A stretch of DNA of 27,924 bases from a virus (lineage: Duplodnaviria > Caudoviricetes): positions 1-27,924 of the IMG/VR virus record IMGVR_UViG_3300020045_010598. The stretch is one strand, 5' to 3'. The translations under genes were made by a program, and so were the position numbers. This document shows, one piece after another, positions 182-11,273 of the stretch (its first letter is position 1; each line of letters begins with the position of its first letter). The notes below the pieces were generated by a model. The model made no database searches. It had not been told where the DNA came from and worked only from the letters and a program-made list of their open reading frames with translations.

Positions 182-237
182 GCGGGGTGGCGGAACGATG
201 GTGACGCGAGCCTACGGCATTAACCGTGGCACCCCGC
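182..237 (+). ncRNA. Structured RNA resembling a tRNA 5' half (acceptor-like stem plus Leu/Ser-type D arm, no T arm)
   Basis: GCGGGGTG(182-189) pairs with CACCCCGC(230-237); TGGCGGAA...GGT.GACGC resembles class II tRNA D arms; internal hairpin 210-229. Confidence 0.4.
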
Positions 238-243
238 GAGACT

Positions 244-350
244 ACAGATGTAGCTCAGGAGGTAGAGCAAGCCCCAGCCGATACCTTTGACGTAAGGGTC
301 GGGAACTGACGAGGTCTTGGCCGGAGGTTCGAACCCTTCCATCTGTTCCA
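244..350 (+). tRNA. tRNA-like gene, 107 nt, with a 31-nt insertion in the anticodon arm; identity undetermined
   Basis: Acceptor ACAGATG/CATCTGT, T8A9, D arm GCTC-AGGAGGTA-GAGC, variable TGGCC, T arm GGAGG-TTCGAAC-CCTTC, discriminator T, encoded CCA (348-350). Removing 275-305 gives exactly 76 nt with loop CT-GAC-GA. Confidence 0.8.
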
Positions 351-352
351 AC

Positions 353-427
353 TTTCTCGTCGGCGAAATTTGTACTGCGTAAATCCAGGTCAAACTATCC
401 CTCAGACACCGCATCTGGTGCAGGGGA
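353..427 (+). repeat. Duplicated promoter+leader, copy 1 (copy 2 at 756-835)
   Basis: TTTCTCGTCGGC..AAT-TTGTAC(370-375)-N17-AACTAT(393-398)..CACCGCATCTGGTGCA..GGGAGA; the same architecture recurs at 756-835. Confidence 0.85.
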
Positions 428-434
428 GAATCCA

Positions 435-725
435 TTGAAAACAGTTTCAACACATGAATTCGAAAAGCTGGAGAGAAAAGTCAAGGAACTGGACAGTCAG
501 ATGTTCCTCGTGTGGATCGCGATTATTCTACTTGTCGCTAAATTATCAGGGACTTTAGGAATTTCCTGGGGGTGGGTCGCGATCCCAATAGCAATGATGT
601 TTTGGGAGCTGGTTTCTGTTTACATCTTCGCTTCAATCATCATCGCCCTTTTCGGACTAGCTACATCGAAGATCCACGACGTTCCTCCGCCAACAAAAAT
701 CATCATGCACCAATGGCATCGATAA
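435..725 (+). CDS. Small membrane protein, KLxGxxxxSWxWVxxP motif (phage 'transmembrane Fragile-X-F-like' type)
   Basis: TTG start after GGGGAG SD; 2-3 hydrophobic helices; motif KLSGTLGISWGWVAIPI; followed by a terminator. Confidence 0.8.
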   Translation: MKTVSTHEFEKLERKVKELDSQMFLVWIAIILLVAKLSGTLGISWGWVAIPIAMMFWELVSVYIFASIIIALFGLATSKIHDVPPPTKIIMHQWHR

Positions 726-760: not shown

Positions 761-835
761 CGTCGGCCAAATTTGCGCCGTGCGATTCCGCGTCAAACTA
801 TCTCCTAGGCACCGCATCTGGTGCAACAAGGGAGA
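756..835 (+). repeat. Duplicated promoter+leader, copy 2
   Basis: TTTCTCGTCGGC..AAT-TTGCGC(773-778)-N17-AACTAT(796-801), leader hairpin GCACC-GCATCT-GGTGC (809-824), SD GGGAGA. Confidence 0.85.
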
Positions 836-842
836 CTAAAAA

Positions 843-1004
843 ATGGAATTGCTTTTCGTACTTCTCGCCGTGCTGTTCGTCGGCCTCAAGCTGACCGGGC
901 ACATCACGTGGTCGTGGGGTTGGGTCCTCGCGCCGATCTGGGCACCGTTGTGTGCGGCGTTCGTCGGCGGGTTTCTGTTCGGGCTTGCGGGAGTGGGGGC
1001 ATGA
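843..1004 (+). CDS. 53-aa membrane protein (MELLFVLLAVLFVGLKLTGHITWSWGWVLAPIWAPLCAAFVGGFLFGLAGVGA), paralog of 435-725; missing from the ORF track
   Basis: Translated by hand; ATG 843 after AAGGGAGA, TGA 1002-1004; LKLTGxIxWSWxWVLAPIW motif. Confidence 0.85.
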   Translation: MELLFVLLAVLFVGLKLTGHITWSWGWVLAPIWAPLCAAFVGGFLFGLAGVGA

Positions 1005-2326: not shown

Positions 2327-2884
2327 TTATGGAGCGAAGAATTTCGGCAGCACGAACGGCTTGCTATCCCTGTTCGCGATCCGCTTTCTGACAGCGTGAC
2401 GGACGCGCTCCTCGGGTGTGCTAAGCGTCGGAGCGTCGTCATCGGCAACGGCAGCGCGAACCAGCGGAACGCCGTGGACGGCATGATCAGCACCAGCGAG
2501 AAATTTTCTCACCGCGCCAAGTCCCGCATTCCTGAGCGCGTCGAGTTCGAGTTCATTCATCGTCAGCAGCGTCGCCCTGATGGGCTTGCTTAGGCCGCTC
2601 AGGTCGACCGTGGGGCGGCTATGCGGCGTTGCGCGTAGATATCCCATAATCGTGTTGATGCCGTCTCTGTTGAGCTGGTGAACCTCGGGCGTCATTTGCG
2701 CTTTGAGATCGTCGAGCATGTCCAGCCCAGAAATCTGCGGATCGAATTCCGGGGCTGGACGACCGCCTCCGCCTCCGCCGAACATCATTCGAAACGGGGT
2801 CATCGCGAGATTGATCGTCCAGTCGAATCCGCTCTTAAACGATGCGAGTGCGGCGGCGATGGCGCGGGCTATTGCTCTAAACAT
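2327..2884 (-). CDS. Hypothetical protein (185 aa, MFRAIARA...)
   Basis: ATG 2884 preceded by AGGGAG SD and a TTGTTC-N17-CATGCT promoter-like sequence. Confidence 0.8.
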   Translation of the reverse strand: MFRAIARAIAAALASFKSGFDWTINLAMTPFRMMFGGGGGGRPAPEFDPQISGLDMLDDLKAQMTPEVHQLNRDGINTIMGYLRATPHSRPTVDLSGLSKPIRATLLTMNELELDALRNAGLGAVRKFLAGADHAVHGVPLVRAAVADDDAPTLSTPEERVRHAVRKRIANRDSKPFVLPKFFAP

Positions 2885-2944: not shown

Positions 2945-3949
2945 TTAGGCGGCAATGGCCTCGGGCGCGAAAGCAACAGTCTTGTATTTGATCGCCGCCG
3001 TGCTGCCGATCCGCTTGCGAACGTCCACTTCGTTCAGCCCGCTGGCGGCGATGATGTCGGCATCTTCTTTAAAAACGTCGCCGATGATCCAACGGATAAA
3101 ATCACCCGTCGACTGCAGTGTGATCGGAAGACCTTGTTCGCGCAGATAATCCAGTCCCTGATCAAGTCTGGACGGAGTGAGCGCGTTCGCGACGAAGTCA
3201 TTGAGTGTTCCAACACGCTCGACATCGACGGCTGCTAGAACCTTCACATGATGCGTGGAGTGCTCACGTCCTTTGACCTTGAACCGGACTCGCTGACCGT
3301 AAACGTCTGCAGACCAGACGACACCTTCGCCAATACCAGAAACGCCGAAATGCTTCCCGACAGGACATTCGGCTTCGACCGCGTTCGTGATCTCGACGAG
3401 ATCGTTCTGCGAGAACTGCGGGTTTTCGATGTCGATGGTCATTTTCCAGGTCGGAAATTGCGTCACCAGAAACGTTTGTTCTGGAAGATGTCCCCTCAGT
3501 GAATCGATATCGATGAATAGGCCATCGATATGCCAGGCCTCGAACACCACGAACATCAGCGGCAAACCCGTCAACGCTACATTGCTTTGAATAGAACCTC
3601 CGCACCATTCCCCGAAGATGATGATGTGTCCGCCGAGATTTTTGCCGATCGATTTCCATTGGTCTTCGTGTTGCGAAGCCCAGGCGGCAAACCCAGCGTT
3701 GTCATAGTCGGTCGTCAGCACACGATTGCGGGACTGATATTCAACTGTGTCGTCACGGATGACAACGGCAGCGTTTGTACCGTGTAGTTTTACCGATCCC
3801 GAAAATTCGACGGTTGGAAATGTCCATGCTTTGATCTGACCTTCGATCAGTTCACCGTGTTCGTCACGCTTTCCGAGTCTGCTGCGCGTCAGTTTTTGGA
3901 TGTCAGCGATGGCATTGCGGTACTGCTCGATAGAAGGATATTTGATCAT
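2945..3949 (-). CDS. ATP-dependent RNA ligase, Rnl2-like
   Basis: Nucleotidyltransferase motifs I KLHGTN, Ia QSRNR, III FGEW, IIIa FVVFE, IV GEGVV, V FKVK, plus a helical C-terminal domain; GGGAG SD. Confidence 0.88.
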   Translation of the reverse strand: MIKYPSIEQYRNAIADIQKLTRSRLGKRDEHGELIEGQIKAWTFPTVEFSGSVKLHGTNAAVVIRDDTVEYQSRNRVLTTDYDNAGFAAWASQHEDQWKSIGKNLGGHIIIFGEWCGGSIQSNVALTGLPLMFVVFEAWHIDGLFIDIDSLRGHLPEQTFLVTQFPTWKMTIDIENPQFSQNDLVEITNAVEAECPVGKHFGVSGIGEGVVWSADVYGQRVRFKVKGREHSTHHVKVLAAVDVERVGTLNDFVANALTPSRLDQGLDYLREQGLPITLQSTGDFIRWIIGDVFKEDADIIAASGLNEVDVRKRIGSTAAIKYKTVAFAPEAIAA

Positions 3950-4054
3950 CTGAATTTCTCCCTTTTCGTTAGATCAGGGAGAAGTGTGCGCCGCCGGCGC
4001 GCCACAGGCATTAGCTAAGATGTTGACAAATATATGTTATTCGTTGCGCTGGGC

Positions 4055-4088
4055 AAAAAAATGGGACGGAGCGATCAAACTCCGTCCC
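4055..4088 (-). terminator. Rho-independent terminator ending the lysis operon and predicted sRNA
   Basis: Minus strand GGGACGGAG-TTTGATCG-CTCCGTCCC-ATTTTTTT. Confidence 0.9.
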
Positions 4089-4153
4089 CTAGGTCTCTAC
4101 CATGTTCGCTCATCGCGGGCACCCATCTGGGGAGACTCTGGTGCGCGAGAACT
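4055..4153 (-). ncRNA. Predicted ~100-nt anti-SD small RNA
   Basis: Own promoter TTGCTC(4188-4183)-N17-CACTAT(4165-4160), hairpin GCACC/GGTGC displaying AGAGUCUCCCCAGAUG, intrinsic terminator, no convincing ORF. Confidence 0.55.
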
Positions 4154-4201
4154 GATAATATAGTGCGACCGAGATATGCTATGAGCAAGCCGCCAATTCG
4201 G

Positions 4202-4462
4202 TTATTTTCGCGGCTCAACGATTTTTTTGACAGCTCCGAGTTTCGTGCGGCAGTCCTCGCCAGCTTCGGCAACGCGCACCAAAAATTTCCCGACGTCGCG
4301 CTGTGATTTCCAAGCCGACGTCGCGACTGGTTCCGCCGGACAGGTCAACAATGATGTCGGGATTGTCGGCCCTCCCGTTGTCGTGCAAGACGACAATAAC
4401 GCTACCGTCAGCATGATCATGCCGATAAAAATGACTTCCCACGGAAAACGCGACGTCTTCAT
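4202..4462 (-). CDS. o-spanin (Rz1-like lipoprotein)
   Basis: Signal peptide with lipobox LSSC, Pro-rich region, LLTCPAEP...DCRTKL pattern; ATGA overlap with the i-spanin. Confidence 0.85.
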   Translation of the reverse strand: MKTSRFPWEVIFIGMIMLTVALLSSCTTTGGPTIPTSLLTCPAEPVATSAWKSQRDVGKFLVRVAEAGEDCRTKLGAVKKIVEPRK

Positions 4463-8201: not shown

Positions 8202-8819
8202 TTACGCCGCAATCCTCATCGCTTTTAGAGTTTCGCTGAGAACGCCAAATGCGTCGCCGCATCGCTTGTAGTGATCTTCGAATGCGATCAGATCACGAGA
8301 GTTGTCTTCAAGCATCTGAACGCCCTCGATAATGACAGCGCGAACTGGGTCGAGATGAGAGTCATCAAGACCTTTCTCAACACCAATGTTGAGAAAGTGG
8401 TTCGCAGCCTTACACCCGCCTTGGCATGTATAACGTGCACGATTGACATCACAATTTGAGAAGAAGTTCATGAAGAACTTAACATCGATGACCGAATTTT
8501 TGTTGTTAATCCAGAATGTCGCATCTTGCATAGCCTCGCTATTGAGAACGCGCTCAGCGAGAACCGGAGTCAGAATCGACAGCGCCCGCTTCCGCAAGTC
8601 TTCTGCCCAAGACTTCTGTTTTGCCGTGCCTTTCAAGGCCTTGCCTCCAAGAGCCTTGGCTGCCTTGCGGCTTTCCTGTGCACGTTTCACTTCCTTCGAC
8701 GGAGCTGCTCTCGTCGCGGTCGTTCCGCCGAACGCGATGCCAGTTTCCATATCGATCCACGTGCCATCGCTCAGCTTGCGCGGCATGTCGGCATTATCTT
8801 TCCATTCTGTGAATGTCAT
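8202..8819 (-). CDS. Phage hypothetical protein with LKGTxKQxxWAxxxR motif
   Basis: 205 aa; GGGGAG SD; upstream TTGTTT-N17-AAATAT promoter; TAAATG junction to the helicase. Confidence 0.8.
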   Translation of the reverse strand: MTFTEWKDNADMPRKLSDGTWIDMETGIAFGGTTATRAAPSKEVKRAQESRKAAKALGGKALKGTAKQKSWAEDLRKRALSILTPVLAERVLNSEAMQDATFWINNKNSVIDVKFFMNFFSNCDVNRARYTCQGGCKAANHFLNIGVEKGLDDSHLDPVRAVIIEGVQMLEDNSRDLIAFEDHYKRCGDAFGVLSETLKAMRIAA

Positions 8820-8940
8820 TTTCTTAGTCTCCCCGTTTTTGCGGCCGTTGATCGTCGGCTACTACATATATATTTCGACATGTTGCTGTAATAAACAAGG
8901 CCGCCGACGGAAAATATTTGGATACACTTCTGAAATTCAA

Positions 8941-8997: not shown

Positions 8998-10635
8998 TTA
9001 CCCGATTGCCCGGTGCCGACCATCCGCCGACATAAGGATCATCGAACGAATCCCGGTCGGGTAGAGCACGACGCTTGCATGTGCCCAGGTTGTCGGCCCG
9101 ATGTTATATCCCTGCGCCAGCTTTGCCAGCACCCCTGCGACAAACGAGCCGTCTGCAATGCGCGGTGAATGGGTATGGCCGCTGGTCACGCGACGGCCGA
9201 AGCGGCGGTACTGCAGAGGGCTGCCACGGCTTCCGCCGATGCCAAGGTCACCGTGTAGACCGTGCTCGACGTCTTGGACAACGTATGATCCTCCGGCGGG
9301 GACAAAGACGATATCAGACGCAAGCCCGAGGTCGCGGAAGCTGTGTTCTGTTGGATTAAAAGCGTCGTCGAGCTTGCGGATTTGTTCATGCCAAACCGCA
9401 TTGTAACGGTGCCAGAGATATGCGTTCTCGGGATCGTAGCGGCCCTCGTCCCCTTTGAGCCACTTCGCGATGGCGCTGTCATGGTTGGACTCGATGACGA
9501 CCGTCGTGCACCAGTCGCGCCGAATGCCGTTCGCGAATGCGACGGCTTCCGATACCTCACGCTCCACCGACACCGTTCCACGGGCCGCCATGCGCGCCAT
9601 AGCGTGAGGGTCTTGGATGTTGTGATGGTTGCGCCAGCGGAAATCCAGCGTGTCTTCTAAAAACGAAAACATCGGCTGGAGCGTGTCGAGCAAGTTCGGG
9701 CAGTCTACGAACTGGAGCCGTGCCCGGTCGTAACCAAACGACGCAAGAGCAATGCGCTGTTCAAGTTGGTCGTGATGAATATCGCCCCAGGTGACAGCCG
9801 CAACGCGATAACCATGCTTGACGATGCCACCTTCGACGAGAATGTTGAGATCCTGAAATGACCCGTCTTCATCAGCAATGAGCTGCCCAAAGAAGACCTC
9901 GCCGTCGGCGTCAATTTCAACCAGTAGCGCGCCAAGCGTGTGATGTTGAATTGCCTTGCGTCCTGCGGCGCGGGGAGCGTACGACGGCATAGTGCAGCAG
10001 CCTGTCGAGATCGCATAGCGCGGCGGCTGTTCTAGCATGCGCGGGATGCTCTCGAGCGCGATCCTGGCATGCGGGACGATGACGTGTTGGCCTCCATTGC
10101 TGGTCTGCCACCCATTGAGAGGATTGGCAGCAGTAGGCAGCACGTTGGCGTCAGCGATGAAGAGAACGTCCGGCGAAAATCTCACGCGGTCGTAGATCAT
10201 CAGGTCTCGGATTTCTGGAGCATACGCACCGCTTCGGACAGCGTGGTCTTCGAATAGACCCTTCTGATAAGTGAACCCAGCGACGACGACATGAGCGCCT
10301 AGATGTTCGGCGTAGGCTTTCAAGTTTGCTAGGAACGGCGCATGGACTTCTGTGTCGTCTTGCGCGGAAGTGAGAATGAAACGATGGACAATGCCGGACT
10401 CAAGATCGGCCTTGATTTCCTCGATCGACGAGATGCGGGCAGGCTTAGGTTTGTCTTTCGGAGTCTTTGTTTCTGTCTGCGATGGCATCGGCGCATTTGA
10501 CTTCAAGAAATCAATCACATTCCGAGCCCTTTTCTCCGACCACCGCATTTCTGCAGCTAGCGGCAGTCTTCCAAGACCCTGAAAACCACGCTTAGAAACT
10601 TCGGCAGCATCAGCCACCACATTGTATTTACTCAT
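8998..10635 (-). CDS. T5 A1-like metallophosphoesterase/nuclease
   Basis: FILTSAQ N-terminal motif, then calcineurin-like motifs GDIH, D..D, SNHD, HG, GHTH and YNxGxTxW tail; likely start ATG 10635 (GGGGAG SD; TTGCAA-N17-AACAGT promoter at 10709-10681). Confidence 0.8.
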   Translation of the reverse strand: MSKYNVVADAAEVSKRGFQGLGRLPLAAEMRWSEKRARNVIDFLKSNAPMPSQTETKTPKDKPKPARISSIEEIKADLESGIVHRFILTSAQDDTEVHAPFLANLKAYAEHLGAHVVVAGFTYQKGLFEDHAVRSGAYAPEIRDLMIYDRVRFSPDVLFIADANVLPTAANPLNGWQTSNGGQHVIVPHARIALESIPRMLEQPPRYAISTGCCTMPSYAPRAAGRKAIQHHTLGALLVEIDADGEVFFGQLIADEDGSFQDLNILVEGGIVKHGYRVAAVTWGDIHHDQLEQRIALASFGYDRARLQFVDCPNLLDTLQPMFSFLEDTLDFRWRNHHNIQDPHAMARMAARGTVSVEREVSEAVAFANGIRRDWCTTVVIESNHDSAIAKWLKGDEGRYDPENAYLWHRYNAVWHEQIRKLDDAFNPTEHSFRDLGLASDIVFVPAGGSYVVQDVEHGLHGDLGIGGSRGSPLQYRRFGRRVTSGHTHSPRIADGSFVAGVLAKLAQGYNIGPTTWAHASVVLYPTGIRSMILMSADGRHRAIG

Positions 10636-10731
10636 TTTTTTGTCTCCCCGGGCATGATTTTTGTTTTGTTGCCCAAGATGACTGTTTTGTTGCCGACGGA
10701 GCGTTGCAAGTTCGCCGGCGATATTTTTCAT

Positions 10732-10995
10732 TTAGATGCCTGTTTTTTCTTTGATCATCGGCCAAAGGAAGTTCAGACCGATCCAAAAGACTGTGAAGAC
10801 GGCGGCGATTCCCGAGAGATATGATTTGTTCGAGACACTGTTTGTCTTGATTGCAGCGAGATCAGTTTTAATCGTGTCGATCTCCAGGCGCATCGATGAT
10901 TGCCCTTGAACAAAGGCGTCCATTTTGGCTTCGAGACGAGCCTGTCCCCTGATCAGATCGAGAAATTCAGATGTGTTAATGGGGTCAGCAGCCAT
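10732..10995 (-). CDS. Coiled-coil protein with C-terminal TM helix (XhlA/holin-associated type)
   Basis: 87 aa; heptad region RLEAKMD...IKTDL; hydrophobic C-terminal helix with basic tail. Confidence 0.75.
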   Translation of the reverse strand: MAADPINTSEFLDLIRGQARLEAKMDAFVQGQSSMRLEIDTIKTDLAAIKTNSVSNKSYLSGIAAVFTVFWIGLNFLWPMIKEKTGI

Positions 10996-11066
10996 TGGAT
11001 TCTCTAACTATTTGTATTCGTTATTCGCTCATGTACGAATGCAAGATGCGATGCGCCGCCGGCGCA

Positions 11067-11273
11067 TCACATGGGTGGCACAAAGACGTAATTCGTGGAG
11101 TCGACGCAGTATGAAACATCCACCGCCGTCTGACTTCCGATAATAATTCCGGCGGTCTCAACGGTATCGCGCCGACCCTTACCGTCGTAATGCGCTACGC
11201 GGGGCTGACGAGCCGCCCAACGCTTCAGTCGGCGGTCGATGAGTTGTGTGGTTGCAAGCACTTGTCCGGCCAT
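11067..11273 (-). CDS. Small hypothetical protein, last gene of the tail module
   Basis: 68 aa, AAGGAG SD. Confidence 0.7.
   Translation of the reverse strand: MAGQVLATTQLIDRRLKRWAARQPRVAHYDGKGRRDTVETAGIIIGSQTAVDVSYCVDSTNYVFVPPM

Follow-up and report, generated by a model that had tools for sequence, protein, structure and literature searches.

The window analysed here, a stretch of 27,924 nucleotides, is an entire virus record and represents a fragment of a lambda-like tailed phage, whose minus strand carries the genes for terminase, portal, capsid and tail proteins, a homologue of the phage T5 protein A1, a helicase, a methylase, the lysis proteins and an RNA ligase. The nearest named relatives of the ligase were found in Agrobacterium, Pararhizobium and Rhizobium genomes, and within the family to which the Pararhizobium genome belongs, a capsid-protein search of 401 genomes identified prophages in 6; the host is thus likely a rhizobium and the phage group likely temperate.

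Between the spanin gene (4202..4462, minus strand; Rz-like in PHROGs), which is the last lysis gene and anchors the conserved position described below, and the downstream RNA ligase gene (2945..3949, minus strand), a variable neighbour outside the conserved unit, lies a predicted RNA unit (4188-4055, minus strand) in which a promoter-like site is followed by a hairpin, its loop rich in C and U, and by a strong terminator. The initial annotation had placed a promoter, about 100 nt and a terminator here, and direct reading of the sequence confirmed this. The predicted sigma70-type promoter (4160..4188, minus strand) consists of the -35 element TTGCTC (4188-4183), a 17-nt spacer and the -10 element CACTAT (4165-4160), with the start predicted at about 4153, and was absent from the list returned by an E. 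coli-type consensus promoter scan. Hairpin 1 (4108..4152, minus strand) has an imperfect stem, a weak 4-bp apical stem and a CCCC loop, and the hairpin text quoted in the initial annotation was located at 4145-4118 of the same strand. It includes the putative seed AGUCUCCCC (4129..4137, minus strand), which is complementary to four start regions of the window and co-varies with its targets in relatives, as well as a second site, CAGAUG-GGUGCC (4118..4129, minus strand), which was analysed within this window and is complementary, with one bulge, to the 5' hairpin of two repeated leaders. The intrinsic terminator (4055..4088, minus strand), with a 10-bp stem at 4088-4063 and a U run, also ends the lysis operon. 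The 99-nt unit folded with a z-score of -3.5 into a single long imperfect hairpin followed by the 10-bp terminator, the seed being partly buried in the predicted fold, and the hairpin 1 (5') domain gave a z-score of -2.4 (-1.5 for a longer stretch). Rfam assigned no family to the units of the window and of the related records L457 and L455 (E up to 5-10), all matches being far below the gathering scores. A short peptide encoded by the unit was rejected: the 9- and 12-codon frames had no clear ribosome-binding site by eye, and the AUG was not kept across copies.

Several other features were observed nearby. The ligase is preceded by its own promoter-like site, and its leader (3945-4025, minus strand) folds strongly (z -3.6), with the ribosome-binding site concealed by an 8-bp hairpin; the L116 prophage carries an identical copy of a 16-nt stretch upstream. 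A conserved gene of 180-200 aa and no known family (2327-2884, minus strand) has homologues in 24 of 400 family genomes, a count that leaves out genome G293. It often sits after the RNA. In L452, L461, L457 and G355 the loop is matched by the start region of this gene, the match in the window being poor. At 244-350 (plus strand) lies a tRNA-like element with an acceptor stem, D arm, T arm and CCA end, in which the anticodon arm is replaced by a long extra hairpin; it was missed by both ARAGORN, which reported zero tRNAs in the window, and Rfam. It is immediately preceded by a smaller tRNA-like fold lacking a T arm (182-238, plus strand; z -4.2). The RNA ligase lies 2.6 kb from the 244-350 element, and relatives encode an AbiEii-like enzyme, a member of a family that targets tRNA. 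In the L116 prophage, a structured-looking non-coding stretch with tRNA-like loops (10990-11200) follows the ligase, close to the prophage end at which tRNA-Thr is located. Finally, a 151-nt inverted repeat (1-151 and 1007-1157; 93%) flanks an 855-nt cassette, each arm carrying an inward promoter-like site and an outward-pointing paralogous gene start; the contig ends within the left arm, and the arrangement might be either a segment capable of inversion or the product of an inverted duplication.

Candidate target genes in the window

The main conserved predicted target is the T5 A1-like gene (8998..10635, minus strand; 545 aa; phrog_1745), the product of which shows full-length homology to T5 A1 (35% identity across 488 aa; E 3e-91). 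It has the metallophosphoesterase-type motifs GDIHH, DTLD, SNHD, HGLH and GHTH, a set which we take to be the metal-binding pattern of the A1 family. According to a recent report, T5 A1 by itself suffices for host DNA degradation, namely of the E. coli chromosome (10.64898/2026.04.02.716235). The promoter-like site (TTGCAA-17-AACAGT) and leader of the gene occupy 10635..10709 (minus strand), and GGGGAGAC was found at 10649-10642, ahead of the real start at 10635, in agreement with the complementarity originally proposed for this Shine-Dalgarno sequence. The same held for the orphan gene of 205 aa termed the 8819 gene (8202..8898, minus strand; promoter-like site at 8898-8870), in which GGGGAGACT at 8834-8826 forms the best single helix with the RNA in the window (9 bp); its protein gave no family or fold, and no homologue among 618 loci.

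The remaining two candidates precede small membrane-protein genes of phrog_1374 on the plus strand. One (773..1004) comprises a promoter-like site (773-801), a leader (808-842) with a 5' hairpin and a 53-aa gene, and here both parts of the proposed pairing were recovered, the complement of CAGAUG-GGUGCC as GGCACCGCATCTG at 808-820 and the Shine-Dalgarno match as GGGAGACT at 830-837. Its paralogue (370..725), with a promoter-like site at 370-398, a leader at 405-434 carrying GGGGAGA (423-429) and a 96-aa gene, forms a 7-bp helix with the RNA and is the weakest candidate. Since the two leaders constitute an 80% direct repeat (353-422 and 756-825), the matches of the 843 and 435 leaders, as we refer to them, are not independent. 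A repressor operator as the sole role of the GCACC-N6-GGTGC repeated in both was rejected, for it leaves the co-variation at A1 unexplained; at these two leaders alone, the repeat might act as an operator.

Of 2000 shuffled RNAs, 2 reached the match of the 843 leader (800-843) under two stringent scorings and 35 under a lax one; the bipartite match was the top one in the window under the former and outside the top eight under the latter. An equal match somewhere in the window was, on the other hand, attained by 22/60 and 38/60 shuffled RNAs under the stringent scorings and by 60/60 under the lax scoring. A plain duplex scan of the window placed neither leader among its top 20. By co-folding (n = 36), the 843 leader ranked 1, A1 4, the 8819 gene 5 and the 435 leader 18; the claim that both leaders are matched held for the 843 leader and was weak for the 435 leader. 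The window helices of 7-9 bp were the least specific among the phages compared. The window-only matches are borderline, and the case rests on the relatives.

The RNA unit in related phages

With the A1-like protein as anchor, 36 viral loci were reached, and the stretch after the lysis genes was read in nine of the closest. A scan of 487 loci for a promoter followed by a terminator, blind to loop and targets, gave 68 promoter-pattern matches, of which nine preceded a terminator: one in the window, seven in other post-lysis copies and one in a unit of the G225 prophage. The L459 unit was added from direct reading, and those of L546, G280, G355, G149 and G417 from later steps. Eleven other rhizobial phage or prophage records thereby proved to carry the unit at the post-lysis position (L452, L461, L454, L455, L456, L457, L458, L459, L546, G280 and G355), genome G220 holds a copy identical to that of L459, and three more records (G149, G225 and G417) carry similar units off-site, away from the lysis genes. 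The layout TTG-N3-17-CA(C/T)(T/C)AT was present upstream of all eight syntenic copies. Representative copies of the loop types were 46-75% identical pairwise and retained promoter layout, hairpin and terminator alike. The terminator stems showed compensatory changes across copies, hairpin 1 had a double change at none of 11 pairs in the closest eight copies (the nine-sequence alignment being rough), and the 5' domains folded with z-scores of -1.2 to -5.1.

The unit is not universal. None was found directly after the lysis genes in L460, L462, L116, G149, G225 and G134, and in the syntenic relatives without it (L460, L116 and L330) the operon ends in another way. A scan of further A1 regions (20-100 kb stretches, some of them fragments or distant A1 forms) left 8 of 11 without a matching unit, a verdict reached by eye and by an insensitive ranking. 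A matching unit was foretold for seven A1-bearing regions and was present in one (G417), where it pairs over the A1 start codon instead of the stretch named beforehand. In G280, neither an A1-like nor an AbiEii-like gene was found, either within 100 kb or genome-wide, and the terminator of its unit has a broken pair, like that of a relic. Another promoter, long hairpin and terminator were observed in the G225 prophage (C102:18043-18155, plus strand), near the A1-like gene on the opposite strand.

Sequence searches reached little of the family. Blastn with the RNA against phages and plasmids, as well as a direct sequence search in seven genomes or records, gave no homologue; a 14-mer scan of viral contigs hit at least 119 loci, with no homologue among the matches listed and a best flank agreement of 18/37 positions, and a 16-mer leader motif gave 35 single matches, apparently by chance. 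The RNA ligase and a 620-aa tail protein as anchors did not lead to the family, the profile of the post-lysis unit did not recover the three off-site units, and a sequence-only RNA model run on two overlapping sets of 151 genomes retrieved no copies beyond those of G280 and G220, with other matches at 17-21 bits. Searches limited to titles and abstract beginnings of open-licence papers turned up no account of the family; subscription papers or supplementary tables of rhizobial sRNAs could list a member as uncharacterised. Judging from the sequences, the units appear to form a real, previously unmodelled family of phage RNAs.

Co-variation of the loop with the start regions of predicted targets

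Genes were called in eight related records (one minus its last 1.9 kb) and the window, and start regions were taken from -30 to +15; the gene caller was a simple one, so that false start regions are possible in every denominator below. The loop differs among the phages, and in each of them it is complementary to the start region of that phage's own A1-like gene, with helices of 8-12 bp: GUCUCCCC faces GGGGAGAC in the window, GAUGUUUCCC faces GGGAGACAUC in L452 and L461, UGUCCCUUCAGA faces UCUGAGGGGACA in the L454 type and UUUCCUCAGGC faces GCCUGAGGAGG in L459. Against its own loop, the A1-like gene ranked 3/40, 1/82, 1/54, 2/57, 2/84, 1/42, 1/54 and 2/54, and the one outlier, L457 (66/79), was due to a miscalled start, the corrected start pairing over 11 bp. 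With loops of other types, the median rank was 5-45.

When scored as the longest helix with at most one G-U, the A1-like pairing measured 8, 11, 11, 12, 10, 10, 9 and 9 bp in eight representatives (window first), lengths reached by 4/40, 2/80, 1/82, 1/57, 2/54, 2/73, 1/90 and 1/65 of the phages' own start regions, respectively. A1 was thus top or tied top in seven of the eight and tied second in the window. Host start regions of the same helix length numbered 10, 0, 0, 0, 0, 2, 10 and 3 out of 316, and for the four best loop types no host start region (0/316) and no more than one among 537-720 from foreign phages matched equally well. Permuting loops among phages, the self pairing was the best of 5040 permutations for the seven loop types and the best of 24 for the four post-lysis types; by duplex energy it was within the best 2 of 5040. 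These permutation counts merge only near-identical loops and ignore other relatedness. The loop-leader covariation in related phages, which the initial annotation had named as a check, was thus borne out at A1. The trans-acting anti-Shine-Dalgarno RNA with several targets which it had proposed gained support from the same co-variation, and its emphasis shifted, the A1-like gene that it had listed last being the most constant target.

The off-site units fit less well by duplex energy, with A1 at ranks 12/73, 28/90 and 27/65. The longest helix was adopted as the measure after these ranks were known, because these pairings are AU-rich, and the A1 matches in G149 and G225 were first spotted by eye. 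Equilibrium co-folding of the whole RNA with the A1 start, which cannot form loop-loop contacts, gave ranks of 2/40, 52/80, 50/82, 5/57, 46/54, 53/73, 14/90 and 6/65, in the lower half in four of the eight phages. All in all, there is strong comparative evidence that the RNA loop is matched for pairing with the A1-like start region.

Two further A1-like loci deserve mention. In G149 (C38:102500-103200), the A1-like gene is followed by two small inserted genes with near-copies of its start region; their pairing with the RNA of that phage equals or almost equals that of A1, as if they had been newly enrolled. The A1-like gene of L546 (3537-5387) is chimeric, its leader and first 46 residues being 78% identical to the L454 type and its body 25%; the RNA-matching start region was retained while the coding body was swapped, and a stop inside the match was reported.

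Of the 27 gene clusters shared by four or more phages, the A1-like, AbiEii-like, Rep3-like and PcfJ-like genes had the best median ranks. The window, a 27.9-kb fragment, holds neither an AbiEii-like gene nor a Rep3-type initiator. In all six post-lysis records holding an AbiEii-like gene, its start region pairs over 10-11 bp, which 2-5 own start regions reach; a second, more distant AbiEii-like gene in L455 pairs over 4 bp, and the off-site units showed no match to their AbiEii-like genes (5-6 bp). The AbiEii-like proteins scored above the cut-off for PF08843 in four of four scanned and matched AbiEii in PADLOC, and the GG...T-D-D stretch is retained; a sequence search of solved structures matched none. 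The AbiEi family was absent from seven neighbouring proteins searched with Pfam, a scan that mostly left the downstream side outside and that a divergent antitoxin could escape. AbiEii proteins are described as nucleotidyltransferase toxins of abortive infection, for which an action on tRNA has been proposed (PMC7725324). The Rep3-type initiator formed helices of 11, 10 and 9 bp in three of four phages, and the PcfJ-like gene had a good match in two of six, 8 bp in one and none in three. There is good evidence from these sequences that the AbiEii-like and Rep genes are targets in relatives.

For the membrane-protein leaders, the relevant comparison is G355, in which the first of two phrog_1374 genes carries GGGAGAUA against the loop UAUCUCCC, the window equivalents being GGGAGACU and AGUCUCCC: loop and leader differ from those of the window at two facing positions, and an 8-bp pairing remains, a length attained by 4 of the 37 start regions. 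The 12-mer foretold for G355 was absent, and its second phrog_1374 gene had no match. The G149 leader pairs with the RNA over only 6 bp, and phrog_1374 was not found in any of ten related virus records (38-82% complete), eight of which carry the post-lysis unit. These data offer modest support for the 843 leader as a target.

Relation to known RNA regulators and proposed role

The specificity of the P1/P7 C4 and P4 CI RNAs is defined by sequence between related phages, and these RNAs are characterized by precursor processing by RNase P, a cloverleaf multi-arm fold and coupling to termination. As trans-acting phage RNAs holding down toxic or lytic functions, they are the closest in kind to the RNA considered here, which differs in having its own promoter-like site and terminator, a predicted fold of one hairpin plus terminator, and genome-scattered predicted targets including the A1-like, AbiEii-like and Rep genes. 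It has been reported that C4 is required for full icd-ant repression and is encoded inside the operon it controls (PMC8198154), and that CI RNA regulates P4 immunity (PMC3632133). In contrast, the predicted targets of the window lie 3-6.5 kb from the RNA on both strands and those of relatives lie in separate modules, and the Rfam C4-type covariance model did not match the units of the window, L457 or L455 (E up to 5-10). By analogy, the phage RNA would act like C4 and CI without belonging to those families.

A host parallel is provided by AbcR1/2 (alpha-r15) and NfeR1, in which an anti-Shine-Dalgarno motif in the 5' hairpin loop pairs at the ribosome-binding sites of many mRNAs (PMC8844928). 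The phage RNA likewise places such a seed in its 5' hairpin loop, although partly paired in the predicted fold. AbcR and NfeR1 are, however, host RNAs with the fixed motifs CUCCUCCC and UUCCCCUC and with transport and metabolic targets, whereas the phage loop is lineage-variable and tracks phage genes; its loops differ from both motifs, and no Rfam match to AbcR/alpha-r15 was found at gathering level. In type I toxin-antitoxin systems, the RNA usually pairs with one adjacent or overlapping toxin gene through long complementarity. The phage RNA is similarly predicted to block translation of harmful proteins, one target class being a small membrane protein, but it would do so with 8-12-bp seeds on several distant genes, not all of them toxins; SymR of SymE/SymR is encoded antisense to its single toxin gene. 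With the AbiE (type IV) systems it shares the target, which matches PF08843 and PADLOC AbiEii; AbiEi gave no match among the neighbours scanned, and control would apparently be exerted by RNA. Among the temperate-phage RNAs involved in exclusion or in the lysis-lysogeny choice, to which the sar-type RNAs of P22 also belong, STnc6030 of BTP1, sas of P22 and OOP of lambda are cis-antisense to one gene, and VpdS of VP882 promotes replication via Hfq; the accessible part of the 2025 review of phage sRNAs that covers them describes no RNA whose seed co-varies with several phage start regions (PMC12197685).

We consider it probable, from these comparisons, that the RNA acts in trans to repress translation across a dispersed phage regulon, with the A1-like gene as its most constant target. 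That no regulation occurs, the unit merely supplying the lysis operon with its 3' UTR and terminator and the phage-favoured Shine-Dalgarno word fitting any CU-rich loop, is very improbable. Such a reading accords with the borderline window-only statistics, the mixed co-fold ranks and the 10 of 316 host start regions that equal the A1 match to the window seed; it is opposed by the joint change of loop and A1 start region over seven types, by the near absence of equal host and foreign-phage matches for the four best types, by a promoter layout retained within the supposed UTR and by the different lysis-operon ends of the relatives without a unit. Somewhat less improbable, but still not expected, is a purely lytic timer, in which the RNA would be a stable 3' end of the lysis transcript turning early genes off late, with no role in the lysogen: in the window and in 11 further records the unit does sit at the end of the lysis operon, with a shared terminator, yet the RNA's own promoter-like site is conserved and three similar units lie far from lysis genes. 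A cis-acting attenuator or leader for the downstream gene is hardly credible. The L454-type unit directly precedes the conserved 180-200-aa gene, whose start region is matched in some lineages, but the downstream gene varies (the ligase in the window, opposite-strand genes in L452, L457 and L461), the ligase has its own promoter-like site, and a close relative of the ligase in L116 has no unit upstream.

The most serious competitor, though we regard it as unlikely, accepts the pairing and assigns it to defence or addiction, the RNA being a shared type-I-like antitoxin: once the prophage is lost or host transcription is shut down by another phage, the RNA would decay and the A1-like and AbiEii-like proteins would kill the cell. 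The two steadiest targets are indeed related to a chromosome-degrading protein and to abortive-infection toxins (PMC7725324), and no AbiEi family was found among the scanned neighbours. The replication initiator and PcfJ-like gene matched in some lineages fit control of the phage's own cycle instead, and A1-like genes also occur without a detectable unit.

In the regulon model that we favour, a predicted phage RNA of 70-110 nt would pair through its loop with the start regions of several unlinked genes in vivo and block their translation in trans. Its targets would be the T5 A1-like gene, in relatives the AbiEii-like nucleotidyltransferase and the Rep3-type initiator, and lineage-specific additions, in the window the membrane-protein leaders and the 8819 gene. 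In the window, a GC-rich box followed by TTG-N3-17-NANNNT is shared by the RNA and all four candidate targets; of the eight matches to this pattern, two lie at unrelated sites and one is a duplicate; a promoter-like site was found in 10 of 12 target leaders checked, with leaders of 17-44 nt. Given the same promoter-like class and the short leaders of the targets, RNA and targets would both be made on DNA entry. Their joint transcription would allow a brief pulse of protein, after which the accumulating stable RNA would shut the target proteins off. In a lysogen, the RNA would keep these putatively harmful genes silent and pre-empt those of an incoming phage of the same loop type, much as C4 and CI do with respect to the operons under their control, specificity being set by the loop. 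There are also hints of a second lock in cis on read-through transcripts: with 14 extra upstream bases, the ribosome-binding site was predicted to be less accessible in 10 of 10 leaders, a comparison made without a shuffle control.

A bolder extension, which we regard as rather doubtful, is a genome-wide RNA immunity code, in which dangerous early genes would be enrolled by matching their ribosome-binding sites to a seed of 8-12 nt and seed types would define immunity groups and furnish a multi-toxin abortive-infection trigger. With the same reserve, the enrolled genes would be those for the T5 A1-type protein, an antitoxin-less AbiEii, the replication initiator and newly acquired functions.

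The known cases of phage immunity based on RNA come mainly from P1 and P4, whose RNAs act on the operons that encode them; if the proposed regulon is true, dispersed, co-evolving targets represent a new layout. It would also account for a temperate phage carrying a relative of T5 A1, and would place an AbiEii-type toxin under an RNA controller instead of the usual protein antitoxin. The seven natural loop/target types would provide a ready specificity matrix for reporters and possibly orthogonal translation switches in rhizobia.
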